Shown one piece after another: positions 2,819 through 14,372 of a stretch of 20,106 nucleotides of DNA; position 1 is the stretch's first letter; each line of letters begins with the position of its first letter. A program made the translations under genes and the position numbers. Below the pieces are notes generated by a model. The model made no database searches. It was not told the DNA's origin and saw only the letters and a program-made list of their open reading frames with translations. The DNA is taken from assembly GCA_030641315.1 (NCBI GenBank), contig DAOWHR010000150.1, forward strand, positions 1-20,106. The letters run 5' to 3'. Origin of the DNA: Anaerohalosphaeraceae bacterium (GTDB taxonomy: Bacteria; Planctomycetota; Phycisphaerae; Sedimentisphaerales; Anaerohalosphaeraceae).

Positions 2819-4245
2819 ATGGATAGAAGAAAGTTCCTCAGTACCGCTGCAATAAGCGTTTGCGCATTATCGTACGGTTCCTTTGCGGACAACACCGCAG
2901 ACCCTAAACGCCCCAACATTCTCTTCATTATGACCGACCAGCAGTTCGCCGACATAATGAGCTGCCGTATGGGTAATCAATATATAAACACCTCGGCGAT
3001 GGACTCCCTTGCGAAAAACGGAATGCTTTTCACCAATGCATACGCGCCCAATCCGCTTTGCATGCCCGCCCGCAACTCCATTTTTACCGGCAGGTATCCG
3101 CACGAAACACAGTGCCAGAAAAACGGCCCCGGCTCGCTTGACACAAAACAGTTCCCCAGCATGGGCACATATTTCAAAAACGCTGGCTACGACACAGGCT
3201 ACGTGGGCAAATGGCACTTGTGGTATAAAACAAAAAGAGCCACGGCTTCGACTACACCGACGTTCTCTACGGCAACGGTCACGACGATGAAATACCCGCC
3301 CCTGCAATTGAGTTCATGAACAAAGACAGAGATAATCCATTCCTTCTCGTCGTCTCTCTCAGCAATCCGCACGATGTGTGCCAGCTTGCAAGACATGAAA
3401 AACTCCCAAGCGGCCCTATCCCGCAACTGCCCCCGATCGTACAAAGGCCGCCTTTAAAGAAAAATATGGCGCCCCCGGCCAAAGAATCTGACGCGATGAG
3501 TCTTATGCGAAAATCCTATCACAACTCCAGCAAGTTTCCCGTCGGCGATTACGATGAGGACAAATGGCGAAGGCTTTCCTGGGGATACTTCCGCCTTGTC
3601 GAAAAAGTTGACGCACTTATCGCTAAGGTACTCAACGGACTAAAACAGTCGGGCCAATATGACAACACGATGATCGTCTTTACCAGCGATCACGGCGACT
3701 GCCACGGCGCACACAAATTCAACCAGAAGACCGTATTCTACGAAGAGTCCGCAAGGATTCCATTCATCCTGAGTTACAACAATGTCATCAAGCACGGCAC
3801 AAGCGACCTGCTGGTAAACACCGGCATCGACATCTTAGCCACCATGATGGATTTTGCAGGCATCGATCAGCCAAAACGACTGCCCGGCAAGAGCCTCAAA
3901 ACTATCACGCAGGGCAATCAGCCAAAAAAATGGCGAGACTACATCGTAGTGCAAAACTACATGACACAGGGCGGACCAGTCGATGGACAAACGCCAAAAG
4001 TAAACGGCAGAATGGTGAGATCGAACTCATACAAATACTGCATCTACGACCACGGAAAACAGCCCGAAGAATTGTTCGACATGGTCAATGACCGCCTGGA
4101 AACCAAAAATCTCGCAACCGATCCCGCATTCAAAAATATCCTGCAATCACACCGCGGATACCTGAAACAGCACGCAAACCGATACAAAGACAAACTCGCA
4201 ATAAAAATGCTTGATCAGCCGTCATTGGACATGATCACCGGTTAA
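2819..4245 (+). pseudogene. Cys-type sulfatase interrupted by a 1-nt frameshift (pseudogene, or a homopolymer sequencing error)
   Basis: ORFs 2819-3319 (frame 2) and 3316-4245 (frame 1) together encode one sulfatase of about 475 aa. The N-terminal part has the leader MDRRKFL, PNILFIMTDQQ, CMPARNSIFTGRYPHE and GKWHL. Frame 1 read from 3241 continues the family sequence (HGFDYTDVLYGNGHDDEIPAPAIEFMNKDRDNPFLLVVSLSNPHD), followed by FTSDHGD. Frame 1 is closed by TAA at 3226-3228, so the indel must lie in 3229-3240 (aaacaaaaagag, with an A5 run at 3232-3236). Confidence 0.85.
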
Positions 4246-4353
4246 AAGACATCCCCCTTAAGTTGGGACTGGAATAAATTCAGTTATCCCTACACACAGA
4301 AAGGATAACATAAATCATACTCAATACTACAGAAGTTAAAAATCTCCCACATA

Positions 4354-7300
4354 CTATTCCAACCAATGCTGGGCCAGGATCACATAGTCTGATAGGTTAG
4401 TTACTCCATCACCGTTAATGTCAGTACTAGAATCTGCTGAAAGCCAATTCTCAACAAAGTACGACAGGTCCCCAAAGGCAACTCCATCAGGACACAAGAA
4501 ATCTCCGATGCTATCATACTCCCAAGCAAGTCTAGGATAACCTGCCCCATCAACACAAAGTCGCCAGAAATCGTCAGTGCCGTTAGCATCTTCATTAGTG
4601 AAGTCCCAGCCGTGGTCTGTAAAGGTGGTTTGGGTTTTCAGTTGGGCTGTTGTTTTGCCCATAACATCTACTGGGTCATCAATATTTCCTACTCCTGTAA
4701 GAGATGGATTCACTTGGCTGTCCCAGAAACAGCTGGCAATGTCCCCGCTGTTGCTGGAACCAACCAGTCCTCCCACTTCGGAGTTTCCAGATACACCGAC
4801 TGCTGCATAACTGTTTGTTATACTGCTGGAATTATTATAGCCAACCAGCCCCCCAACTTCAGTATTCCCAGTTACAGAACCAGTTGAATAGCAGTTTATT
4901 ATCTCACCGTACTCACTTTTTCCCGTCAGCAACCCGATTTTAGAATCGCCTGTTACAGTACCTGTTGAATAACAGTTTATTATCTCACCATATTCATTCG
5001 CTCCGGCCAGCCCCCCAGCAGAAGCATAAGCTCTGTCGATCGCACTGCAGTATACAGTGCCGCTGCAATAGCAGTTTCTAAGTGTACCATGATTAGAACC
5101 CACCAGGACCCCGATGTAAGATTCACCGCTTACATCGCCGCAGGCATAGCAATCTATTATATCACCCGAATTATACCCGACTAGTAGCCCCACGTAAGCA
5201 TATCCGGTTAAACTGCCCGTCGCATAGCAGTTTGTTATTGTGCCAAGGCTACGCCCAACCAGACTTCCCACAAAACCTGCATACTCTTCTGATTCAACCG
5301 ACACATCAATAATCCCTAGATTCCTTATATGACCCCCTCTGTCTAAATAAGCAAATATTCCGTCCGAAAATGTATGCATAAAGTTAGATATAGTGTGCCC
5401 CTTACCGTCAAACACTCCCTGAAACCTCATTCTTATATCTTGGATTGTATTAAAAGATTTTCCCGTGTATGCCGATAGATCAATATCACTCATCAGAACA
5501 AAGTCTTTATTCCAGTCCTGCTTGTGTATCCCAATCTCGTTCATCTCCTCTGCACTCCATATCTGATACGGATCTTCTTCACTCCCAACCCCTCCCCCAT
5601 AAGGAAATCCATCACTAACGACTATAGTAACCATAGCAGCCTCACACCCCGCAGCAGGCTCTTGAGAGATAACCACACCAGCGTCAATTGTTTTGCTGTG
5701 AGTTGCCTTTGTAACCAAAACCGGCACTGCTGAGCTTATCGCTTCTATTGCTTCACCCTCAACCAAACCCACAACTTCAGGCACCACCCCAATTTCCTGC
5801 CATGATAAAACAGGATAACCGCACCCCGACATACTCCAGATATCTTCACTGCCGTTTTCACTTTCACCGACAAAGTCCCAGTTCATCTCGGTATATGTAT
5901 CCTGTATCTGCAGTTCCATTGTTTCCTTGCCAATAATACCTTCTGTATACCAGCTATTATAGCCTTCCCCCGCAAGTGATTCATTTACATTTATATCCCA
6001 GAAACAATTATTATAAACTCCCTGTTCGTTCTCTCCAACAAAAGCTCCAACAGAAGTCTTATATCCAAAATAGCGAACACGACTTGCCGAATAACAGTTC
6101 TCGATAACACATTCACTGTTCCTTCCAATAAGTCCCCCGACATGGCGATCCCCGGAAACCCTACCGATAGCATAACTGTTATCCACACTGCCGTTATCCA
6201 CACAATTCCCCGTTAATCCCCCGACAGAAATATTACCATTGACGCTGCAGACTGAGTAGCAATATGATATAGTGCCTGTATTACATCCTGCCAGGCCGCC
6301 AATATAATAATAGCCGTTAACTGTTCCAGCCGAATAGCAATTTGAGATACTGCCGTTATTAACACTTGCCAGCCCCCCCACATAATTTGAATATGTTCTA
6401 TCAGTGATACTGACATTCTCCAAACCAAGATTTCTAAGAGAACCTTCATTCACCCCGAAAAGCCCGAGGTAACCGTCGTTCGGTCCAGCCGCTTCGATTG
6501 TCAGGTTTCTGACAACATAACCCTTTCCGTCAAATACACCCGTGAACGCTGTCCCAACAAATTTACCTTCTGACATGTCGCTATCCCATGCGATAACTGC
6601 TGTAGAATAAACATATCCTCCTAAATCAATGTCCGCAGATAAAATGAAATGTTTATTCCAATCCTCAGGATATGCTCTAATTGCATTCATCTGCTCAACG
6701 GTCGATATTTGATATGGAGATTCTTCTGTCCCCAAACCAGATTCATAAGGAAAACCATCGCTCACAAACAACGTAACTAACGCGGTCTCACACCCTGCAA
6801 CCGGCTCCTGTCCTATAACATGATCAGTAGGAACAGATTCACTGTGAACCTTAATAACATATACTGGCAATCCCAATGACTCAATTGAACTGACCGCTTC
6901 TGCTTTTGACAATCCGCTAACGTCAGACGACACACCGACAGGTTGCCATGATAAAACAGCAAACCCGCACTCCGGCAGATACCATAAATCATCAATTCCA
7001 TTCAAACTTTCTCCCACAAAATCCCAGTACATATCTGTGTAAGTAATCTGTGTTTGCATCTCAGAGATCGTCTTTCCCACTACATCATAAGGATCTTCGA
7101 CATTACTAATGCCTTTGATATCTGGGTTAGCTTCGATGTTCCATAAACAAGCGTAATAATCAGTGTAATAATTACCACCCACACCCACCAGCCCACCGAT
7201 GTATTCATTGCCTGAAACTTCTCCCATAGCATAACAATAGGTTATCTCGCTATGATAACTATTTGCCCCTGCCAGACCACCCACGCTCCTGTCGCCTTTG

Positions 7301-8298
7301 ACATTTCCCGTAGCATAACAATATCTTATTGCTCCTTCGTTATATCCTACCAGCCCCCCGGAATAACTCGAAAAGCTGATAACCTTTCCTGTTGCATAGC
7401 TCTCGGACACACTCTCATAATTAATTCCAACAAGGCCGCCTATACTGTAACTACCCCTGATATCACCCAGCCCACAGCACCTTGATAACTCACCCATATT
7501 ATAACCAACCACTCCCCCGATTTCAGAAGTGCCCTCAACCCTGCATGCCGCCAAGCAGTCTGTTATAATACCTTCATTATAACCTGCAGTTCCACCAACA
7601 TCGTACGAATCAGATATTACGGTTCCCTCGCTGTTGCAATTTTCTATACTCCCATCATTCCAGCCCACAAGCCCACCAAGATAGCTGTTGCCACCCATGA
7701 TTATTGACACATTGCAGTCAGTTATACTGCCTTTATTTTTACCTGCAAGCCCCCCCGTTGACAAGTAACCATTAACACTGCCGGAAACAGAACAGTTGGT
7801 GATTCCTCCGACATTATATCCTGCCAGCCCCCCCACATAAAAACCGTATTCCGCTTGAATATCGACATCTTTCAGCTCAAGATTTCTGATCTCACCGTTA
7901 CTGCCAACATAACCAAATAGACCTGTATACTCACAATCGAAAGATGAAGTAATAAATCCTGTAATTGTGTGCCCACCCCCATCAAATATACCGTTAAAAG
8001 GTGTTCCATCGTATGAACCATTACTGTTATCCTCGTCTGGAGCAACCAAGGCCGTATCATATATGGCCGCACTCAGATCAATATCAGTCGTCATTAAAAA
8101 ATGCTTATCCCAGTCCCCCTCATTCTCCCCTATCTCCTGCATATGGTTAGGATCTGCAATAATATAAGGTTCTTCAGCAGTCCCCGCACCTCCCCCATAC
8201 GTCCCACAAAAAGCACATTGAGCAAACACAAGCATAGCTGTTACAGCTAACAACAATAGACGATGATTGATTATTATTGCGATATTATTACTTTTCAT
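4354..8298 (-). CDS. Large secreted GLUG-repeat protein (adhesin-like): three tandem modules, two PASTA-like segments, dockerin-like C-terminus
   Basis: ORF 4354-8331 opens with TTG. The ATG at 8298 is preferred because GGAG lies 10 nt upstream. The leader is MKSNNIAIIINHRLLLLAVTAMLVFAQCA. About 20 copies of the GLUG-type motif (V/I)GGL(A/V)G.N.G.I..C(Y/S) are present, which suggests a beta-helix-like repeat. Each of the three modules starts with EE.PYQI....M..I.....W.K.F.L..DIDL. Confidence 0.85.
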   Translation of the reverse strand: MKSNNIAIIINHRLLLLAVTAMLVFAQCAFCGTYGGGAGTAEEPYIIADPNHMQEIGENEGDWDKHFLMTTDIDLSAAIYDTALVAPDEDNSNGSYDGTPFNGIFDGGGHTITGFITSSFDCEYTGLFGYVGSNGEIRNLELKDVDIQAEYGFYVGGLAGYNVGGITNCSVSGSVNGYLSTGGLAGKNKGSITDCNVSIIMGGNSYLGGLVGWNDGSIENCNSEGTVISDSYDVGGTAGYNEGIITDCLAACRVEGTSEIGGVVGYNMGELSRCCGLGDIRGSYSIGGLVGINYESVSESYATGKVISFSSYSGGLVGYNEGAIRYCYATGNVKGDRSVGGLAGANSYHSEITYCYAMGEVSGNEYIGGLVGVGGNYYTDYYACLWNIEANPDIKGISNVEDPYDVVGKTISEMQTQITYTDMYWDFVGESLNGIDDLWYLPECGFAVLSWQPVGVSSDVSGLSKAEAVSSIESLGLPVYVIKVHSESVPTDHVIGQEPVAGCETALVTLFVSDGFPYESGLGTEESPYQISTVEQMNAIRAYPEDWNKHFILSADIDLGGYVYSTAVIAWDSDMSEGKFVGTAFTGVFDGKGYVVRNLTIEAAGPNDGYLGLFGVNEGSLRNLGLENVSITDRTYSNYVGGLASVNNGSISNCYSAGTVNGYYYIGGLAGCNTGTISYCYSVCSVNGNISVGGLTGNCVDNGSVDNSYAIGRVSGDRHVGGLIGRNSECVIENCYSASRVRYFGYKTSVGAFVGENEQGVYNNCFWDINVNESLAGEGYNSWYTEGIIGKETMELQIQDTYTEMNWDFVGESENGSEDIWSMSGCGYPVLSWQEIGVVPEVVGLVEGEAIEAISSAVPVLVTKATHSKTIDAGVVISQEPAAGCEAAMVTIVVSDGFPYGGGVGSEEDPYQIWSAEEMNEIGIHKQDWNKDFVLMSDIDLSAYTGKSFNTIQDIRMRFQGVFDGKGHTISNFMHTFSDGIFAYLDRGGHIRNLGIIDVSVESEEYAGFVGSLVGRSLGTITNCYATGSLTGYAYVGLLVGYNSGDIIDCYACGDVSGESYIGVLVGSNHGTLRNCYCSGTVYCSAIDRAYASAGGLAGANEYGEIINCYSTGTVTGDSKIGLLTGKSEYGEIINCYSTGSVTGNTEVGGLVGYNNSSSITNSYAAVGVSGNSEVGGLVGSSNSGDIASCFWDSQVNPSLTGVGNIDDPVDVMGKTTAQLKTQTTFTDHGWDFTNEDANGTDDFWRLCVDGAGYPRLAWEYDSIGDFLCPDGVAFGDLSYFVENWLSADSSTDINGDGVTNLSDYVILAQHWLE
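4357..4494 (-). other. Dockerin-like (EF-hand-loop) C-terminal tail of the GLUG protein
   Basis: CPDGVAFGDLSYFVENWLSADSSTDINGDGVTNLSDYVILAQHWLE. It contains a D-x-N-x-D-G-x-V-x-x-x-D calcium-loop-like motif and two hydrophobic ..(F/I)(V/L)..(N/H)WL helices. It is related to the tail of the 8538-10208 product. Confidence 0.55.
4495..5580 (-). repeat. GLUG protein internal module 3 (about 362 aa)
   Basis: Starts at EEDPYQIWSAEEMNEIGIHKQDWNKDFVLMSDIDLSA. Contains about seven GGLxG-like units and LKTQTTFTDHGWDFTNEDANGTDDFWRLCVDGAGYPRLAWE. It has no PASTA-like segment and is followed by the C-terminal tail. Confidence 0.75.
5581..6726 (-). repeat. GLUG protein internal module 2 (about 382 aa)
   Basis: Starts at EESPYQISTVEQMNAIRAYPEDWNKHFILSADIDLGG. 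Contains about five GGLxG units and LQIQDTYTEMNWDFVGESENGSEDIWSMSGCGYPVLSWQ. Ends with a PASTA-like segment plus DGFPYGGGVGS. Confidence 0.8.
5608..5787 (-). other. PASTA-like segment 2 within the GLUG protein
   Basis: VVPEVVGLVEGEAIEAISSAVPVLVTKATHSKTIDAGVVISQEPAAGCEAAMVTIVVSDG. It occupies the same position in module 2 as segment 1 does in module 1. Confidence 0.5.
6727..8175 (-). repeat. GLUG protein internal module 1 (protein-level repeat, about 483 aa)
   Basis: Starts at EEPYIIADPNHMQEIGENEGDWDKHFLMTTDIDLSA. Contains nine GGLxG units and MQTQITYTDMYWDFVGESLNGIDDLWYLPECGFAVLSWQ. Ends with a PASTA-like segment plus DGFPYESGLGT. Confidence 0.8.
6754..6933 (-). other. PASTA-like segment 1 within the GLUG protein
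   Basis: VSSDVSGLSKAEAVSSIESLGLPVYVIKVHSESVPTDHVIGQEPVAGCETALVTLFVSDG follows the PASTA pattern (VP.V.G....A...L...GL.......S..V..G.VI.Q.P.AG..V.....V.L.VS.G). Confidence 0.5.
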
Positions 8299-8342
8299 CT
8301 TTGCTAGTCTCCAATATTGAAGGATTTTCAAGCTATTACCAC

Positions 8343-8371
8343 ATCATACTTATATTATGGCAGAATTACAA
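8343..8371 (-). promoter_or_regulatory. Candidate sigma70-type promoter for the GLUG gene
   Basis: The minus strand reads TTGTAA (8371-8366), a 17-nt spacer, then TATGAT (8348-8343). The predicted transcription start is near 8336. That leaves a leader of about 38 nt with GGAG for the ATG at 8298 and argues against the TTG at 8331. This is pattern matching only. Confidence 0.3.
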
Positions 8372-8429
8372 GAAAAAAGGTCAAATGTTATCTTTACACC
8401 CCTATACACTTACTTATTTCAGTAAATCC

Positions 8430-8457
8430 TTGAAAAAATGCCGGGTTTTGATATGAT
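8430..8457 (+). promoter_or_regulatory. Candidate sigma70-type promoter (extended -10) for the HAP2-like gene
   Basis: TTGAAA (8430-8435), a 16-nt spacer ending in TGa (8449-8451), then TATGAT (8452-8457). This lies about 75 nt upstream of the ATG at 8538. Pattern matching only. Confidence 0.35.
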
Positions 8458-8537
8458 GGGCCTATCGTCTTTTATCACAACTGCTCGACAGATGTAAGCA
8501 TAAGCAGGTTTTGTTGTTTTTTGGAACGGAGGGTATC

Positions 8538-8627
8538 ATGAATACAAAAAACGCGGCTTCACACCAAATCGCAATCGTAATATCAACCGCTATAATCGTC
8601 TTGTGCATCACGTCTCTCTGCCAAGCC
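8538..8627 (+). other. Signal peptide (or uncleaved signal anchor) of the HAP2-like protein
   Basis: MNTKNAASHQ is followed by an 18-residue hydrophobic core, IAIVISTAIIVLCITSLC, then QA/D. This could be a small-x-A signal peptidase I site. The core is also long enough to span a membrane if it is not cleaved. Confidence 0.6.
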
Positions 8628-10208
8628 GACATTGTCAGCAGTGCCGAATTAACCGACTGCATTCAGACGGACAAAGATATCACTTGCGATGAGCGAATGG
8701 TATTCACAGTAAACACAAGCTACGGTTTATCAAACAACCTGGAGATACTGAAATTGGACCCGCAAGGTCAGGGTATTGAAGAATCCATACAACTTGAGAT
8801 CACAAAGACGCCTCCATGCTACTATTTCCCTCTGACATATTTCCACACGGCAGCATATTACCCTCACGAAGAATTAAGATCTGCGCACGATCCGACGATC
8901 CCATGCAGCCGAGAATGTGAGGACAGTCCGCAGTCTCAGTGCCCAACGTGCGGATGGGTCTATCATGGTCAGAATCGTATCGAACATTCTCAGGGCTTTT
9001 GCGGCGGCGGTGTCGCGCACTGCATTCGCATGGGAGATTTGTACTTCCACGGTTACGAGATCGGCCCCTACAGAAAAACTTATGATATTAAAACTAAAAT
9101 ATTTCAAGGTTCTGAAGAACACACTTTCACGATCAAGCCGGACAACCCTTTGTATTCCACAAAGTTCGATCGATCATATATGGGCGATTTTAACCTGGAA
9201 GCCAACCTGATCGGCGACCAGCAGCAGTACCTCGGTGTGCCCGAACTCGACAACTACATACTCTATATCCCAGCTGCCCCAGCGGAACATCCGATGGTTC
9301 AGGATTACCAGAACAATATGCTCCTCGTTCCGCGCGAAGAAGTATCAAAATACGGAACCGAGCTGGACAAAGTAGCCATCAGCTATAAGACGTTTCGACT
9401 CTATGGCAGCTCACTCTCCCTGCTCCAGCCAGGTGACGGACTGGGCAACCAACTGTTCCATAAACACAATTCAGACCTGCAACAGCTGACTATAAATCCG
9501 AATACCGAAACAACATACCTTATTCACGGCAAACGTCCGTTTAAGCAGTCAATGGAATTCTTAGTAGGAATGCCGCAGGTACTTGTCTATAAACCAAAAC
9601 AGATACAGCACTCCTTAGTGTCATTTAAGATAGATTCCCCAGCGGAACTTAAACAGATCAAGACGGAATCAAAAGGTATAATTTGGTCTGCTGAAATCGA
9701 AACATTCGATAGCATGTCCAACAACGGCGTTCTCAATGTACTTATCAAAAATATTGGGGATTATAAAACCGATTACATCGTTATGGTAACTGACGCGACA
9801 AGAAACATTCAAAACAATTCTTACCCGGCCCAGGCACGAACGCTGGATCCGGAACAGGAAATCACCGTTAAGTTTGACATCCATACTCAATATAATCTAA
9901 ATTCGTCTAATGAGCTTAAAGTAAACCTCAAAAGCACATCAGGCAAAGAATACGACTCTGTATGGGAGAAATTTGACACAGAAATAATTGAGACCAAATA
10001 TCCATGGCAGCTTTACCAACAGAACAAAGGCTCAAAATACAAAGCCGAATCCAGAAGCTATATCAAGGGGGACTTTAACTGCGATGATAAAGTAGACCTT
10101 CAGGACCTGGCCATCGCGACAGAAGAATGGAAGCCCGGCCAAAGCAATACTATCGTCATGGCCGATCTGCTGAAGATAGCCCAATGCTGGCTTACCGGCT
10201 GCCTATAA
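8538..10208 (+). CDS. HAP2/GCS1-like fusexin (class II fusogen-like) ectodomain protein, secreted, with no C-terminal transmembrane (TM) segment
   Basis: ORF 8511-10208 opens with TTG. The ATG at 8538 is preferred because GGAGGG lies 5 nt upstream. The leader is MNTKNAASHQIAIVISTAIIVLCITSLCQA/D. The following motifs are collinear with Arabidopsis HAP2 as I recall it. IVSSAELTDC..(8)..ITCDERMVFTV matches ILSKSRLEKC....LNCSTKIVLNL. ITKT..CYYFPLTY....YYPHE matches ITVNKSAAYALYDLTYIRDVPYKPQE. CEDSPQSQC......IEHSQGFC.G matches CEPDAG..IC......EQTQP.CCPCG. VAHCIRMGDLYFHGYEIG matches TAHCLRFPGDWFHVFGIG. ANLIGDQQQYLGVPELDNYILYIP matches VNLIGDFGGYTSIPSFEDFYLVIP. NMLLVPREEVSKYGTELDKVAISYKTF matches MWMLLERVRFTLDGLECNKIGVGYEAF. 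GLGNQLFHKHNSDLQQL matches CLHNQLWNFRESDINRI. GIIWSAEIETFDSMSNNGVLNVLIKNIGDYKTDYIVMV matches [36 protein letters not shown]. Confidence 0.8.
   Translation: MNTKNAASHQIAIVISTAIIVLCITSLCQADIVSSAELTDCIQTDKDITCDERMVFTVNTSYGLSNNLEILKLDPQGQGIEESIQLEITKTPPCYYFPLTYFHTAAYYPHEELRSAHDPTIPCSRECEDSPQSQCPTCGWVYHGQNRIEHSQGFCGGGVAHCIRMGDLYFHGYEIGPYRKTYDIKTKIFQGSEEHTFTIKPDNPLYSTKFDRSYMGDFNLEANLIGDQQQYLGVPELDNYILYIPAAPAEHPMVQDYQNNMLLVPREEVSKYGTELDKVAISYKTFRLYGSSLSLLQPGDGLGNQLFHKHNSDLQQLTINPNTETTYLIHGKRPFKQSMEFLVGMPQVLVYKPKQIQHSLVSFKIDSPAELKQIKTESKGIIWSAEIETFDSMSNNGVLNVLIKNIGDYKTDYIVMVTDATRNIQNNSYPAQARTLDPEQEITVKFDIHTQYNLNSSNELKVNLKSTSGKEYDSVWEKFDTEIIETKYPWQLYQQNKGSKYKAESRSYIKGDFNCDDKVDLQDLAIATEEWKPGQSNTIVMADLLKIAQCWLTGCL
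10062..10205 (+). other. Dockerin-like C-terminal tail of the HAP2-like protein
   Basis: IKGDFNCDDKVDLQDLAIATEEWKPGQSNTIVMADLLKIAQCWLTGCL. It has a D-x-N-x-D-x-K-V-D-x-x-D loop plus ..LAIATEEW and ..LLKIAQCWL helices. Compare DINGDGVTNLSDYVILAQHWLE at the end of the GLUG protein. Confidence 0.5.
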
Positions 10209-10238
10209 TAATCTCTGATATAAACAAAATGAAGCCGG

Positions 10239-11723
10239 TTATTTACCGCCGTAGATCAGTTTCATCTGCGCAAAGTTTGGTATAACAGGCAGCATTCCCT
10301 CACCTGGTTTGTAAGAGTCACCCCAATAAGTATAAAAAGCCTTGCCGATCAGATAATCCCGCGGAACGATACCCGCACGATATATCTGACCCAGATCACC
10401 TTTGCCGGGATCCGGCCACATCCGGCTGTCATGGCTCACCGGGCTGTTATCCCCGCACAAAAAGAACTCATCCGGACCAAGCGTAAAACTATTATCCTCA
10501 CGAGGCCTTACTCCGAGTTTATAATACATGTCACGGTATATCCCGATGTGAGCAAGCATCATACTCCCCTGCCCGAAAACTTCGACCGCCGGGTCGTTAT
10601 TATTCTTCACTTCGCCAACCGCATACATATCCGCCCCAAGATCGAAGATCAGTTCTTCTCTGCCGTACCGAAGTTTAAGAACATGATCCACATTAGAAAA
10701 ACGCAATTGATCGCCCTGACCAACTCTGACATCGGTATACAGCTTTGCCTGCGCAATTACTTCTGTCACTCCGTCAACGGTCCTTTCCAGCCTCAACTCG
10801 TCCGCTCCGAAATCCACCCACCCATGATACATTGTATCATACTTCTTAAGCGTCACACCTATGCCCCCCTGCTTTTTTTCGGGCGAGACATAACATTGAA
10901 ACATCAGATCGCTGCATACTTCGGACTTGGCAAACGCCATGCTGTTGTAAGTATACTTCGCGTTAAAGTCCACACCTTTGCTCGCATCGTAATGTATCGT
11001 ATGAACCTTGCCGTCCTCGCTGTCAAGCTCAAACACCGTAGGCCCGTCTGCACTCAGGTTCCAGTTGCTGCCCGGTACGTTCACAAAAGGCTGTTCCCAT
11101 TTCCTGTTACCCAACCCCTGCCCGACATTACCCTCCTTGCCTGCCTTTTCATGCCATCGGCCCGAAGGCTGGTAATCGTTGTCATAAACGCACATCCATA
11201 ACTCGTTTTGAACCTTGGGAGGCTTACGGGATATCTTGCCGTCAATATAAAAATCACCGTCATATATCTCAAGCTTCTCACCGGGACTGCCGATCAGCCG
11301 TTTAATATAGTTCTGTTCAGGATCGCCTGGATACTTGAAAACTACAACATCCCACTGCTTAGGCTCGACGAATTGATAGATCGACTTCAACACGAATATC
11401 CTGTCACCGTTAAGCATCGGTGGAACGTCTTTGCTGTCAACCCAGTACCCGCAGCTTGAGCAGCGGGGACGCGGATCACGGCTGCTGTCTCCATCCAGAT
11501 CAAGAGTATACCCGCAACGGGTACACCGCAAATGGTAATGAACACCACGCAGCGTCTCAGCCATACTGCCGGTAGGGATACGGAAAGGCTCGACAATAAA
11601 CTCACGGAATACAAACGCGAGGATAAGCGCAATACCAAGCCACTGCAAGGTATTAACTATACTCAACAGCGTAGTATTATGACGCCGTTCGAACTCAAAT
11701 CCATCTTCAAAACGATCAACCAT
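10239..11723 (-). CDS. lepB: Signal peptidase I, long form with a Cys4 insert (paralog 1)
   Basis: ORF 10239-11732 opens with TTG. The ATG at 11723 is preferred because AAGGAA lies 9 nt upstream. The N-terminal TM segment is WLGIALILAFVF. The catalytic boxes are IPTGSMAETL (Ser), GDRIFVLK, WDVVVFKYPGDPEQNYIKRLIGSPGEKLEIYDGDFYIDGK (Lys) and FFLCGDNSPVSHDSRMW. A CTRCG..(17)..CSSCG insert follows the Ser box. An insert of about 260 aa separates the Lys box from the GDNS box. Confidence 0.9.
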   Translation of the reverse strand: MVDRFEDGFEFERRHNTTLLSIVNTLQWLGIALILAFVFREFIVEPFRIPTGSMAETLRGVHYHLRCTRCGYTLDLDGDSSRDPRPRCSSCGYWVDSKDVPPMLNGDRIFVLKSIYQFVEPKQWDVVVFKYPGDPEQNYIKRLIGSPGEKLEIYDGDFYIDGKISRKPPKVQNELWMCVYDNDYQPSGRWHEKAGKEGNVGQGLGNRKWEQPFVNVPGSNWNLSADGPTVFELDSEDGKVHTIHYDASKGVDFNAKYTYNSMAFAKSEVCSDLMFQCYVSPEKKQGGIGVTLKKYDTMYHGWVDFGADELRLERTVDGVTEVIAQAKLYTDVRVGQGDQLRFSNVDHVLKLRYGREELIFDLGADMYAVGEVKNNNDPAVEVFGQGSMMLAHIGIYRDMYYKLGVRPREDNSFTLGPDEFFLCGDNSPVSHDSRMWPDPGKGDLGQIYRAGIVPRDYLIGKAFYTYWGDSYKPGEGMLPVIPNFAQMKLIYGGK

Positions 11724-11796
11724 CCCTGACAATTCCTTATCGAATATTATTCCAGCCGCATCTTAAATAACTTTCCCTGCAAATTCGGCTATTGCC

Positions 11797-13347
11797 CTAA
11801 CTGCCCCCGCCCGCGATTATCTTCATCCCCCCGATATACGGCACTAACCGAAGCCCCTTAGCGTACCAGGGTTTGAAACCGCCCGGCCAGTAAACAAAGA
11901 ACGCCTTGCCTATCATATACTCACGAGGAACAATACCCTCACGATATTCATTGCCGTCATTGCCTTTCCCAGGCTCATTCCAGAATCGGGAGTCAGAACT
12001 GCTTGGACTGTTATCGCCGCAAACAAAGAATTGATCATCTGCCAGCGTAAAAGGTGAATCGCCGCGAAGAATTGCATGACCGCTCTCTTCCACAGGAGTA
12101 TAATGAATGTCCCGCATTATAGCGACATGCAGCAGTTCCATCTTCCCGCTGCCGAATATCGTAACGTCAGGCATGATATTAATTTGCTCGCCAGCCGAAT
12201 TGTACGACCTGCCAAGATCATACCGAAGCTCATCGCCGCCAAACTCCAGAACAAGCTCATGGTCGACATTAGCAAAACGACACTCCACCATGACTGCCTC
12301 GTCATGCCAACCAGCCGCCTTTCTGGCAAGTTCCTCCACCTTGCCGCCCCTGCCGATCATCTCGATGACCATATCACCGTCGGCATCGACCCGGCCGCTA
12401 TACCGTATGCCGTACTTACTCAGTCCAACACCGACACTGCTGCTTGCGTCGGACCGCGACACATTGAACTTGACCATAAGATCGCTGCATATCGGCATAT
12501 TTTTGAAGTACGCCGATACATCGTAAGAATATGTCGCCCTGAAATCGTTTCCGATCGTACTGTTATAAACAAGTTCGCTAACCTGACCGTCTTTGCTGTC
12601 AAGAACAAACCTTCTGCCCCCGTCACCGTCAAGGTTCCAACTGCCGCCGCCAACATTATCGAACGGCTGCTCCCAACGATGACCGTTGAATGTAGCAAGC
12701 CCGGGGTTCACCGGCTGATAATCGTTCTGATATATGCTCATCCAAAGCTCATCCTGAACATTCTTTGGCTTCCTTGCGATCTTGCCATCGATATAAACAT
12801 CGCCGTCGATAAGCTCAAGCGTCTCGCCCGGCAGCCCTACCATACGCTTGATATAATTGATCTCAGGATGCACAGGATTCTTGAAAACCACAACATCCCA
12901 TCGCTTTGGTTCGGAAAACTGATATATGCACTTCAGAACAAATATGCGGTCACCTTTGACAACTGGCATCTTTTCGTTTGTACGCAAATAAGAGCCGCAA
13001 CTGCTGCACCATTGAGGAGATGGCAATACAGGCATGTTCTCTCCGGGAGCGGCATTCTCAGGAATCCTGAATCGAAATCGAGAATCCTTGTTATATCTGT
13101 ATGGAACAAACCCATAATCATAACGCCACCCGCATTGCTCACAACGAAGGCGAAAATGTGCACCCTTTAACGTATCTGCCATACTGCCCGTCGGTATAGT
13201 ATAGGCCTGCATCACGAAAACAATAAATACAAGCGTGATCGAAAATGCCATTATCAGCCACTCGGAAGTATTGAACAGACTTTCAAAAAAGTTAAAACTC
13301 TCTTTTTTTCGTTTTTTAGAAGATACTGACAACTCGTTGCCTTTCAA
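11797..13347 (-). CDS. lepB: Signal peptidase I, long form with a Cys4 insert (paralog 2)
   Basis: 516-aa ORF with a TTG start; the first in-frame ATG would truncate the TM segment. TM segment: WLIMAFSITLVFIVFV. It carries IPTGSMADTL, GDRIFVLK, WDVVVFKNPVHPEINYIKRMVGLPGETLELIDGDVYIDGK and FFVCGDNSPSSSDSRFW. The Cys4 insert is CEQCG..(41)..CSSCG. It is collinear with paralog 1 along its full length. Confidence 0.88.
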   Translation of the reverse strand: MKGNELSVSSKKRKKESFNFFESLFNTSEWLIMAFSITLVFIVFVMQAYTIPTGSMADTLKGAHFRLRCEQCGWRYDYGFVPYRYNKDSRFRFRIPENAAPGENMPVLPSPQWCSSCGSYLRTNEKMPVVKGDRIFVLKCIYQFSEPKRWDVVVFKNPVHPEINYIKRMVGLPGETLELIDGDVYIDGKIARKPKNVQDELWMSIYQNDYQPVNPGLATFNGHRWEQPFDNVGGGSWNLDGDGGRRFVLDSKDGQVSELVYNSTIGNDFRATYSYDVSAYFKNMPICSDLMVKFNVSRSDASSSVGVGLSKYGIRYSGRVDADGDMVIEMIGRGGKVEELARKAAGWHDEAVMVECRFANVDHELVLEFGGDELRYDLGRSYNSAGEQINIMPDVTIFGSGKMELLHVAIMRDIHYTPVEESGHAILRGDSPFTLADDQFFVCGDNSPSSSDSRFWNEPGKGNDGNEYREGIVPREYMIGKAFFVYWPGGFKPWYAKGLRLVPYIGGMKIIAGGGS

Positions 13348-13450
13348 TGAAATACTCTATCGCAAAAGCGACAGTAAAAAAATACTCCGGTGCCTGAACA
13401 TATATAATCAAAATTGTAATACTTTAGCCATCTGTCAGATACGACTTGTC

Positions 13451-13470
13451 ATTCCAGCGAAGGCTGGAAT
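13451..13470. repeat. Perfect 8-bp stem / GAAG-loop palindromic element (REP-like)
   Basis: attccagc-gaag-gctggaat. Its translation gives the ..VIPAKAGIQ.. peptide seen in ORF 13235-13579, a signature of a widespread bacterial intergenic palindrome family (from memory). Only a single copy occurs in this window. Confidence 0.45.
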
Positions 13471-14027
13471 CCAGTGTATAATAGCTTCCGCCGCAGGCGG
13501 TATCCTGTTATTTAACATTTGGCTAAAATGTTACTCAAAATTAAATTACAGCTTTAAACGCAAAATCACATTACCCTAAAGGGCGTTAAAACCATTAATT
13601 ATGGCACCTAAACCTATTTAGGTCAAGCAGCTATTGATTTTTTCGGATATTTACACCTCCAGCAATATTTATTCGATCAAGTATTATACCTTCTTTTGAT
13701 GCGTGAAACAGCTTTAATGAACCAAAACATCACTTTTTGCAAACAAACAATCTATAATGTCGACTGAAATATATTAATTTTTTCATCATTCAGGCAGGAT
13801 TTCTCCAGGATTGTAAAAAAACTGAAAATAAGTCTTGCCGTTTAGAAGTCTTTACTGTATAGTACTTTGTGTAATTTAGGAAGGATTTGCCCTGTTTGAA
13901 ATATTTGAGGCCAAGGTATCGTTGATAGTCAATCAAGGCAAACTTAATGCTGCTGGCAAATGCTGTTGTAGGGCTTATTGTGATGCGGTGAAAATAATAA
14001 CAAATTCTTTTTGATACGAGGTCACAC

Positions 14028-14372
14028 ATGTCAACTATCACAAAAAAAGAACTAATAGATAAGATCGCCGATACTACTCAGGCAAAAAGAGTTGTTGTAA
14101 AAAGAATAGTCCAGGCTTTTCTGGACGAAATAGTGGAAGAACTCAGCAAGGATAACAGGCTTGAGTTCCGCGACTTCGGTGTATTCGAGACTAGAAAAAG
14201 AGCAGCAAGAGTTGCGCAAAACCCGAAAACACTCAAAAGAGTAATGGTCCCGGAAAAGAGAACTATAAAGTTCAAAATGGGCAGGCTGATGAAAGAAAAG
14301 CTACAAATGCCCATAGCGGATGAACCAACTGAACAAACGCCATCAGAACCAGTGGAAACTTCTCAGGAATAG
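14028..14372 (+). CDS. HU/IHF-family DNA-binding protein with an acidic, Pro-rich C-terminal tail
   Basis: 114 aa, with GAGG 8 nt upstream of the ATG. ITKKELIDKIA...AKRVVVKRIVQAFLDEIVEEL, RLEFRDFGVFETRKRAARVAQNPKT...V.VPEKRTIKFKMGRLMKE matches the HU/IHF fold pattern (the ..GFG.F....R..R.GRNP.TGE..I......FK.G..LK arm). Confidence 0.88.
   Translation: MSTITKKELIDKIADTTQAKRVVVKRIVQAFLDEIVEELSKDNRLEFRDFGVFETRKRAARVAQNPKTLKRVMVPEKRTIKFKMGRLMKEKLQMPIADEPTEQTPSEPVETSQE

Follow-up and report, generated by a model that had tools for sequence, protein, structure and literature searches.

An anchorless HAP2/GCS1-family protein encoded in a planctomycete genome

The gene and its product

The window examined here is a 20,106-nucleotide stretch of DNA from an Anaerohalosphaeraceae bacterium of the Planctomycetota (GenBank assembly GCA_030641315.1, the whole of contig DAOWHR010000150.1, positions 1 to 20,106). 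Its plus strand carries a gene at 8538..10208 that encodes a 556-amino-acid protein, and we are highly confident that this protein is a true member of the HAP2/GCS1 family with a class II 'fusexin' fold. Translation runs from ATG 8538 to a stop codon ending at 10208, while an in-frame TTG at 8511 marks the mechanical start of the open reading frame (ORF). The coding sequence is supported by the ORF, by Pfam and by an identical NCBI entry, deposited as 'hypothetical protein KAS23_04510 [Anaerohalosphaera sp.]' from a metagenome-assembled genome (MAG). The sequence itself shows a Shine-Dalgarno motif, GGAGG, at 8528..8532 (plus strand), 5 nt before the ATG, in agreement with the ribosome-binding site named in an earlier reading of the DNA made without database searches (the sequence-only reading). 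A sigma-70-like promoter candidate, TTGAAA-16-TG-TATGAT (8430..8457, plus strand; 10/12 with an extended -10, a consensus match only), lies about 80 nt 5' of the ATG. With a divergent gene upstream and a convergent one downstream, the gene is probably monocistronic. It has no introns, and its GC content of 0.45 overall and 0.52 at third codon positions (GC3) resembles that of its surroundings.

The protein begins with a predicted cleavable Sec-type signal peptide (residues 1-30, 8538..8627), which starts with MNTK, continues through a hydrophobic core and ends at an LCQA/DIVSS junction, as judged by hydropathy and the -3/-1 rule; this predicted leader marks the product as exported. An (R/Q)A/DIV junction is conserved in the protein's own clade of closest relatives and places the mature N-terminus at the start of domain I. 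The ectodomain core with domains I-III follows (residues 31-485, 8628..9992), delimited by Pfam, by Foldseek and by an AlphaFold2 model whose predicted local distance difference test score (pLDDT) is mostly above 90. Within it, alignment and model place the tip of domain II at residues 155-161 (C-GGGV-AH, 9000..9020), the deletion site of the cd loop. Domain III, an Ig-like beta sandwich, occupies approximately residues 355-485 (9600..9992), with boundaries estimated from model strands and HAP2 alignments. A linker or stem-like segment (residues 486-510, KYPWQLYQQNKGS..., 9993..10067) stands in place of the eukaryotic Cys-rich stem and transmembrane (TM) helix. The protein ends in a dockerin-like tail with one EF-hand-like loop and two helices (residues 511-556, GDFNCDDKVDLQDL...ADLLKIAQCWL, 10068..10205).

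Family membership rests on a direct match to the Pfam model HAP2-GCS1 (PF10699; E=1.4e-47, 162.9 bits against a gathering score of 27.4), in which protein residues 56-500 align with profile positions 26-486 of 515, or about 90% of the profile. This bears out the proposal of the sequence-only reading that the similarity runs along the whole ectodomain and is easier to detect than that of archaeal Fsx1. The collinear blocks it had listed recur in phmmer alignments, namely SQGFC, AHC(I/L)R.GD.YFHGYEIG, NLIGD, YILYIP, MLL...R, NQL and IKN.G. Searched with phmmer against PDB sequences, the protein matches HAP2 only (Trypanosoma cruzi, 3e-21; Arabidopsis, 6e-13; Chlamydomonas, 5e-12), and no NCBIfam model matches it. 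The N-Q signature of the ij loop is present in GNQLFHKHNSDL (residues 303-314), which aligns with LHNQLW of Arabidopsis; N304 is invariant and Q305 at least 90% conserved across the bacterial family alignment. Six cysteines alone are conserved at 81% or more (C41, C50, C127, C138, C155 and C162), with C123 and C135 present in 35-48% of members. Outside the cd loop, 114 positions reach at least 85% conservation among the other family members; the window protein retains 105 of them, where typical members keep 98-109, which indicates that it is not decaying.

Structural modeling leads to the same family. The AlphaFold2 model, computed from a family alignment of 102 sequences (A1), has a mean pLDDT of 89.9 and a predicted template-modeling score (pTM) of 0.84. 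In Foldseek searches of the PDB, HAP2 structures match at E=4e-38 to 3e-32 with template-modeling scores (TM-scores) of 0.64-0.85. They include Chlamydomonas HAP2 6DBS (E=4e-38, TM-score 0.71/0.77, root-mean-square deviation 3.7 Å) and 5MF1 (E=3e-33, target-normalized TM-score 0.85) and Arabidopsis HAP2 5OW3 (E=5.5e-34, target-normalized TM-score 0.79). Archaeal Fsx1 (7P4L) follows at E=1e-16, with a TM-score of 0.44-0.53 and 11% identity, and viral class II proteins and EFF-1 were placed at E=1e-14 or weaker. EFF-1 itself matches at E=5e-13 (TM-score 0.39-0.45, 7-8% identity); for viral class II proteins E-values range from about 1e-15 to 1e-10, and viral models in BFVD reach a TM-score of 0.43 or less. 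The model lies nearer the post-fusion hairpin (TM-score 0.85 to 5mf1) than the prefusion monomer 7s0k (0.47-0.53). The predicted architecture is thus the three-domain class II type, with HAP2 as its nearest structure.

The fusion loop, the membrane anchor and the tail

The protein differs from most of its relatives at the tip of domain II. Only four residues separate C155 from A160 in SQGFC-GGGV-AHCIR, an interval that the sequence-only reading had overlooked. In eukaryotic HAP2 and most bacterial relatives, the corresponding interval spans 25-40 residues and contains the fusion loops; 83 of the 102 aligned relatives hold 25-33 further residues there, with the core (W)W-R-G-E-E...F-S-T-A-H-C. 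The Arg of the WRGE motif is invariant in all 83 and, in a joint alignment, shares its column with an Arg of 70 of 74 eukaryote-type sequences, while the window protein has a gap. The excision is precise, since the flanking Cys and His motifs are kept, and the model joins strands 154-156 and 159-164 by a tight turn with pLDDT above 90. A long-loop relative with the same overall architecture, P0013, yields a model (pLDDT 85.7) in which R175 lies just ahead of a short helix at 177-180, matching the position of R185 relative to helix alpha0 in Chlamydomonas HAP2. It matches 6DBS better than the window protein does (E=6e-42, TM-score 0.74/0.80).

Short loops occur in 18 of the 102 aligned members. 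Five of these, including the window protein, form a clade of intact proteins at about 55% identity (P0001-P0005, 100% bootstrap). Others belong to a second, large clade whose members have KNHG tails, and there are isolated cases such as P0070, which sits within a long-loop clade (73% bootstrap). This distribution indicates that the cd loop was lost at least twice. In Chlamydomonas HAP2, the cd loop of about 40 residues forms two fusion loops with helix alpha0 between them (Fedry et al. 2017, PMC5332557). R185, at the N-terminus of alpha0, bridges to E126 and the ij loop, and deltaTRA, R185A and R185Q each abolish both gamete fusion and liposome co-flotation (PMC5332557).

The second missing part is the membrane anchor. 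A hydropathy scan found no C-terminal TM anchor in any of the 120 bacterial relatives listed: beyond the first 80 residues, their highest 19-residue Kyte-Doolittle mean is 1.63, and the N-terminal leader is the only hydrophobic segment. Among eukaryote-type full-length representatives, such as the HAP2 proteins of Balamuthia, Malawimonas, Naegleria, Nematostella and Riccia, 63 of 71 have a segment of at least 2.2 near residues 480-650, preceded in 50 of the 63 by a C-x(1-3)-C-x(4-10)-C-x(4-8)-C stem motif. Neither this juxtamembrane Cys motif nor a TM helix nor a Cys-rich or basic cytoplasmic tail was found in the window protein. The bacterial proteins finish domain III with a conserved KYSW(D/E)LQxKNEAS and then stop or run into bacterial modules, which include the dockerin-like tail, Bact_surface_Ig-like repeats, TSP3 repeats with a KNHG tail, and MopE repeats. 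Lipoprotein anchoring was considered and rejected, as only about 10 of 109 N-termini show a lipobox-like motif, and the window protein has none.

The tail that follows the linker (residues 511-556, GDFNCDDKVDLQDLAIATEEWKPGQSNTIVMADLLKIAQCWLTGCL) contains a calcium-loop-like motif, D-x-N-x-D-x-K-V-D-x-x-D-L, and then helices, two of which are modeled by AlphaFold2 at pLDDT 66-80. Its match to Pfam Dockerin_1 (PF00404) is below threshold (E=0.1, 13.3 bits against 22.9), with only one complete loop. A matching tail (4357..4506, minus strand) ends the 1,325-residue GLUG/PASTA protein encoded divergently at 4354-8331 on the minus strand; it was identified by BLASTP and reaches E=0.003 against Dockerin_1, also below threshold. 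The two tails align at E=5e-8 with 35% identity over 49 residues, which upholds the shared C-terminus described in the sequence-only reading and suggests that both proteins may use a common docking or sorting route. The GLUG/PASTA protein is itself predicted to be exported, and its three similar modules contain numerous GLUG motifs as well as PASTA domains.

The remaining window genes encode sulfatases, two 3-keto-disaccharide hydrolases, two long S26 signal peptidases, HU, a cold-shock protein and a GFO/IDH/MocA oxidoreductase. The signal peptidases, HU and the cold-shock protein agree with the bacterial context described before. The sulfatases agree with it as well; one of them has a sub-threshold TAT_signal match (19.5 against 22.7 bits), and the above-threshold match falls on the GFO/IDH/MocA oxidoreductase. 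One sulfatase is split over overlapping plus-strand ORFs at 2819-3319 and 3316-4245, the first covering profile positions 1-112 and the second 160-301 as well as SGSH_C. A frameshift is suggested, reflecting either a pseudogene or an error of assembly. The S26 paralogs lie in tandem on the minus strand (10239-11732 and 11797-13347) and are unusually long, at 497 and 516 residues. Both carry a CxxC...CxxC zinc-ribbon-like insert soon after the N-terminal TM segment, and large insertions split their S26 domain. An AT-rich intergenic stretch of about 680 bp (13350-14030, GC about 0.37) precedes the HU gene. Rfam and tRNA scans of the window returned nothing.

Bacterial distribution and relation to eukaryotic HAP2

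Several lines of evidence place the gene in a bacterium. GC is even across the contig, and the neighbors are typical Planctomycetota genes. Among 5.8 billion proteins, 135 relatives were found at E of 1e-3 or better, all with PF10699; Planctomycetota, Phycisphaerae, Thermodesulfobacteriota and Nitrospira are among the named sources. Bacterial contigs of 317, 107, 70, 31 and 26 kb have relatives embedded in them, surrounded by genes that include those for SAICAR synthase, a sigma factor, rhomboid, PilM, ZnuA and histidine kinases. The sequence-only reading had named a mis-assembly of eukaryotic and bacterial DNA as a concern. Given uniform bacterial GC and genes, together with about 135 homologs in unrelated contigs of up to 317 kb, chimeric assembly or contamination is excluded for practical purposes. 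A peptide-pattern scan of 185,579 GTDB species genomes recovered 9 loci in four or more phyla, all MAGs: Planctomycetota (including Sedimentisphaerales and Phycisphaerae), Desulfobacteria, Olavius symbiont Delta 1, Nitrospira and Spirochaetales. As the scan rests on few peptide patterns, this count is a lower bound.

Individual loci add detail to this distribution. The Olavius sp. associated proteobacterium Delta 1 (L012), a sulfate-reducing symbiont of a gutless marine worm, encodes a homolog 41% identical to the window protein; other MAGs come from sediment or the water column. A Thermodesulfobacteriota MAG (L004, GCA_042567335.1) has two tandem HAP2 paralogs at 10001-11626 and 11730-13595, beside a large TSP3-repeat protein; one of the paralogs ends in MopE repeats. 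In P0083, P0096, P0097 and P0103, an N-terminal TIG or DUF7467 domain and a collagen triple helix precede the HAP2 ectodomain, and this arrangement would impose a parallel trimer, joined to its stalk through domain I.

Neither a conserved partner gene nor a common carrier emerged. In an all-versus-all BLASTP comparison of ORFs of at least 90 residues across 14 bacterial loci, the HAP2 gene alone was common to more than three loci, so it is regarded as a stand-alone gene; inspecting the surroundings gene by gene gave the same picture. No relatives were found in IMG/VR viral contigs, PLSDB plasmids or INPHARED phages, and general carriage by mobile elements or viruses was rejected. An IS110-family transposase (L005, 5207-6226), about 1.5 kb upstream of the Nitrospira homolog, is the only hint of mobility in any locus.

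A wider search ties the bacterial proteins to eukaryotic HAP2. Exhaustive screening of 1.84 billion cluster representatives returned 388 sequences at E of 1e-3 or better, eukaryotic HAP2 included; about 45 are close (at least 32% identity, no TM helix), and the rest are 24-30% identical. Two very AT-rich contigs from JGI samples 3300036487 and 3300035593 (L016, 1-1190, and L017, 1-1712; GC 28-30%, GC3 12-17%) encode the HAP2 proteins P0125 and P0134, which share 42-53% identity with the window protein across domains II-III. Both retain the Cys stem motif of the eukaryote type, a strong TM helix and a tail that is polybasic and rich in Cys; in the aligned core, P0125 is up to 66% identical to Planctomycetota-type members. 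No Pfam domain was found in their C-terminal extension. A metagenome scan for this AT-rich TM-anchored lineage gave no match, and a search with P0134 gave 7 proteins.

Neighbor-joining trees, built with simple distances from domain-trimmed sequences (237-436 columns), split the bacterial plus AT-rich sequences from eukaryote-type HAP2 in 200 of 200 bootstraps, or 170 of 200 with Dayhoff-6 recoding. Bacteria alone were never monophyletic, and the tree used to trace loop loss is poorly resolved at its deep nodes. Mean distances were 0.93-1.0 among bacterial sequences, about 2.0 between bacterial and eukaryotic ones and 1.6 among eukaryotic ones. Because TM-anchored AT-rich sequences fall within the bacterial clade, the family appears to have crossed between a eukaryote-type-anchored lineage and bacteria. 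The smaller bacterial diversity and patchy occurrence favor transfer into bacteria, with later anchor loss and horizontal spread, but the nested TM-anchored sequences could also reflect transfer out of bacteria or long-branch artifacts.

Two further contigs carry dense, intron-less arrays of long-branch, TM-anchored HAP2 paralogs. L018 holds two (5230-7464 and 7753-9570), and L019 (NCBI GCA_004196315.1) holds three (2-916, 932-2884 and 4172-5944). Both arrays adjoin MORN and RCC1-repeat genes, at a GC of 39-46%; a protist or a giant virus is a possible source.

The claim that no bacterial example was known holds for the literature searched but not for databases. Full-text searches found no paper on a bacterial HAP2, while in databases PGAP has given one homolog the name 'HAP2/GCS1 family protein [Phycisphaerae bacterium]'. 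According to Moi et al. 2022 (PMC9259645), no gamete-type fusogen was known in prokaryotes before Fsx1, and bacterial MAG assignments are given only for Fsx1, with caution. As far as we can tell, the homology is visible in databases with precomputed PF10699 hits, yet apparently unreported. The HAP2 family thus reaches a new domain of life, in an anchorless architecture that is also new and, in this member, loop-less.

HAP2 is regarded as the ancestral gamete fusogen of eukaryotes, and the debate over its origin has involved eukaryotes, viruses and, since 2022, archaeal Fsx1. A bacterial clade with more than 100 members in several phyla brings a fourth player into this debate, and the two AT-rich, TM-anchored sequences make it a concrete, testable question which way and when the family crossed. 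Had eukaryotic HAP2 arisen from this clade, the gamete fusogen would have originated outside the triangle of eukaryotes, archaea and viruses. Moreover, the family offers natural 'deletion mutants', all anchorless, some loop-less and some collagen-stalked, which could reveal which parts serve which activity and what a class II fold does when it is not fusing membranes. For structural studies, the disulfide-poor, secreted bacterial ectodomains may also prove simpler to produce than eukaryotic HAP2.

Possible functions and comparison with known systems

In class II fusion, the fusogen has to be anchored in one membrane, to engage the opposite membrane or a partner in trans, and to fold back so that the two membranes are drawn together. 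Since the window protein has no anchor and no membrane-insertion element, we infer that it is no canonical unilateral HAP2-type fusogen; the idea of bacterial cell-cell or vesicle fusion in the sequence-only reading is weakened by the lack of a TM anchor, a cd loop and the essential Arg. The reading preferred here, at slightly better than even confidence, is an exapted adhesin or scaffold that is oligomeric and secreted or surface-docked. The protein would act outside the cytoplasmic membrane, secreted or docked at the surface and probably as an oligomer; its tail may serve as a docking or sorting tag, and its adhesive or scaffolding role would derive from a fusogen. The bacterial clade was probably exchanged horizontally with a TM-anchored HAP2 lineage and then spread patchily among sediment bacteria. 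This role is favored because relatives carry accessory modules typical of bacterial surface proteins and adhesins, and because the collagen stalks of some would imply constitutive trimers, in which the tip of domain II faces away from the stalk.

Several considerations weigh against an adhesin or scaffold. The function of the window protein is deduced from its missing parts, and the absence of a conserved neighborhood supports no specific role. The tail is only a candidate dockerin, as it scores below the Pfam threshold and has no known cohesin partner, and it could act as a non-covalent anchor that replaces the TM helix. The TM and signal-peptide calls come from hydropathy and simple rules, and the bacterial examples derive entirely from MAGs or metagenomes, with no isolate among them. 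Loop loss alone is also no proof of a non-fusogenic protein, given the precedent of EFF-1: a 2014 study by Perez-Vargas and colleagues reportedly found that EFF-1 fuses membranes without a hydrophobic fusion loop, through bilateral trans-trimerization.

That precedent for loop-independent fusion also feeds an unlikely alternative, in which the protein is an active fusogen with a split anchor: its tail would dock on a membrane partner, and cells or vesicles would fuse or exchange outer membrane by EFF-1-like bilateral trans-trimerization. The tail follows domain III and a 25-residue linker, exactly where HAP2 has its stem and TM helix. The entire ectodomain is strongly conserved, most relatives keep the aromatic, Arg-organized cd loop, and the modeled hairpin has the geometry of post-fusion HAP2 (5mf1). 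This geometry says little, however, as AlphaFold tends toward the post-fusion form of its training data. Additionally, none of the 14 loci has a conserved partner gene alongside, the dockerin match is below threshold, many relatives are tail-less or carry their extra module N-terminally (TIG plus collagen), and we know of no bacterial cell fusion in this lineage. Somewhat less probable again is a secreted membrane-targeting effector, toxin-like in action against protists, algae or bacteria. The soluble ectodomain of Chlamydomonas HAP2 inserts into liposomes as trimers (PMC5332557), and the bacterial family is secreted and anchorless; its collagen-stalked members look like trimeric spikes that would point the domain II tip outward, and its long-loop members retain WW-R-G-E loops. 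An effector role would fit those long-loop relatives better than the window protein, which lacks both the insertion loop and the liposome-binding Arg, and no toxin, immunity or secretion-system genes were found nearby in the window or the 14 loci. A broader proposition is doubtful, and ranks just below the effector: that some bacterial HAP2 proteins are membrane-active, with long-loop members inserting into the membranes of target cells and tail-bearing ones, attached to the outer membrane through a dockerin-like split anchor, mediating bilateral fusion of outer membranes or vesicles, and/or that the clade is the source of eukaryotic HAP2.

Loss of anchor and loop can also be read as decay, and the rare, patchy distribution (9 loci in the pattern scan of 185,579 species genomes) would suit a functionless relic of horizontal transfer from eukaryotes that is becoming a pseudogene. 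This is very improbable in view of an intact 556-residue ORF with a Shine-Dalgarno site, the retention of 105 of 114 conserved positions, and a precise loop excision that spares the flanking motifs. The short-loop clade, moreover, has five intact members at about 55% identity, and more than 100 intact relatives across phyla have newly gained bacterial modules. Least credible, to the point of being negligible, is an artifact of eukaryotic contamination or chimeric assembly. The examples do come only from MAGs and metagenomes, and caution was urged on bacterial MAG assignments of Fsx1 (Moi et al. 2022). Against it, the gene has bacterial signals, no introns and a base composition like its surroundings, its homologs sit mid-contig in many independent bacterial contigs from different samples and assemblers, and the architecture is bacterial (Sec leader, dockerin-like, Ig-like or TSP3 modules, no TM helix).

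Among known systems, dockerin type I modules (PF00404), which occur in bacterial surface and cellulosome proteins, share with the tail a calcium-loop-like motif and helices, but the tail is single-looped and below threshold. Viral class II proteins (flavivirus E, alphavirus E1 and bunyaviral Gc) have the same beta-rich three-domain architecture, yet, unlike the window protein, they are TM-anchored and equipped with fusion loops. The class II fold is likewise shared with EFF-1/AFF-1 of Caenorhabditis elegans; EFF-1, unlike the window protein, is TM-anchored and required on both membranes.

Archaeal Fsx1 (7P4L) resembles the window protein as a prokaryote-encoded class II fold with a signal peptide. 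Besides a functional fusion loop, Fsx1 possesses a fourth domain, a six-helix bundle and three TM helices; it resides on integrated mobile elements and is so remote from HAP2 that HMM-HMM (hidden Markov model) comparison was needed to detect it (Moi et al. 2022, PMC9259645). The window protein, by contrast, has three domains and a 46-residue tail without a TM helix, matches PF10699 directly, and lies among housekeeping and polysaccharide-degradation genes.

Eukaryotic HAP2 (5MF1, 6DBS, 6E18, 5OW3 and 5OW4) differs from the window protein in its cd loop with the Arg, which are deleted here, and in its Cys motif, TM helix and basic tail. At the family level, the bacterial proteins are 24-30% identical to eukaryotic HAP2 and form a separate clade, with about 6-8 conserved ectodomain cysteines compared with the 16 given for HAP2 (PMC5332557), and, unlike eukaryotic HAP2, they add bacterial surface modules C-terminally or, in some relatives, N-terminally. 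Most bacterial relatives nevertheless have the bipartite cd loop of eukaryotic HAP2, with its invariant Arg before a short helix. The window protein in turn shares with eukaryotic HAP2 the family, the fold, the signal peptide and the motifs SQGFC, AHC(L/I)R, YFHGYEIG and the ij-loop NQL.

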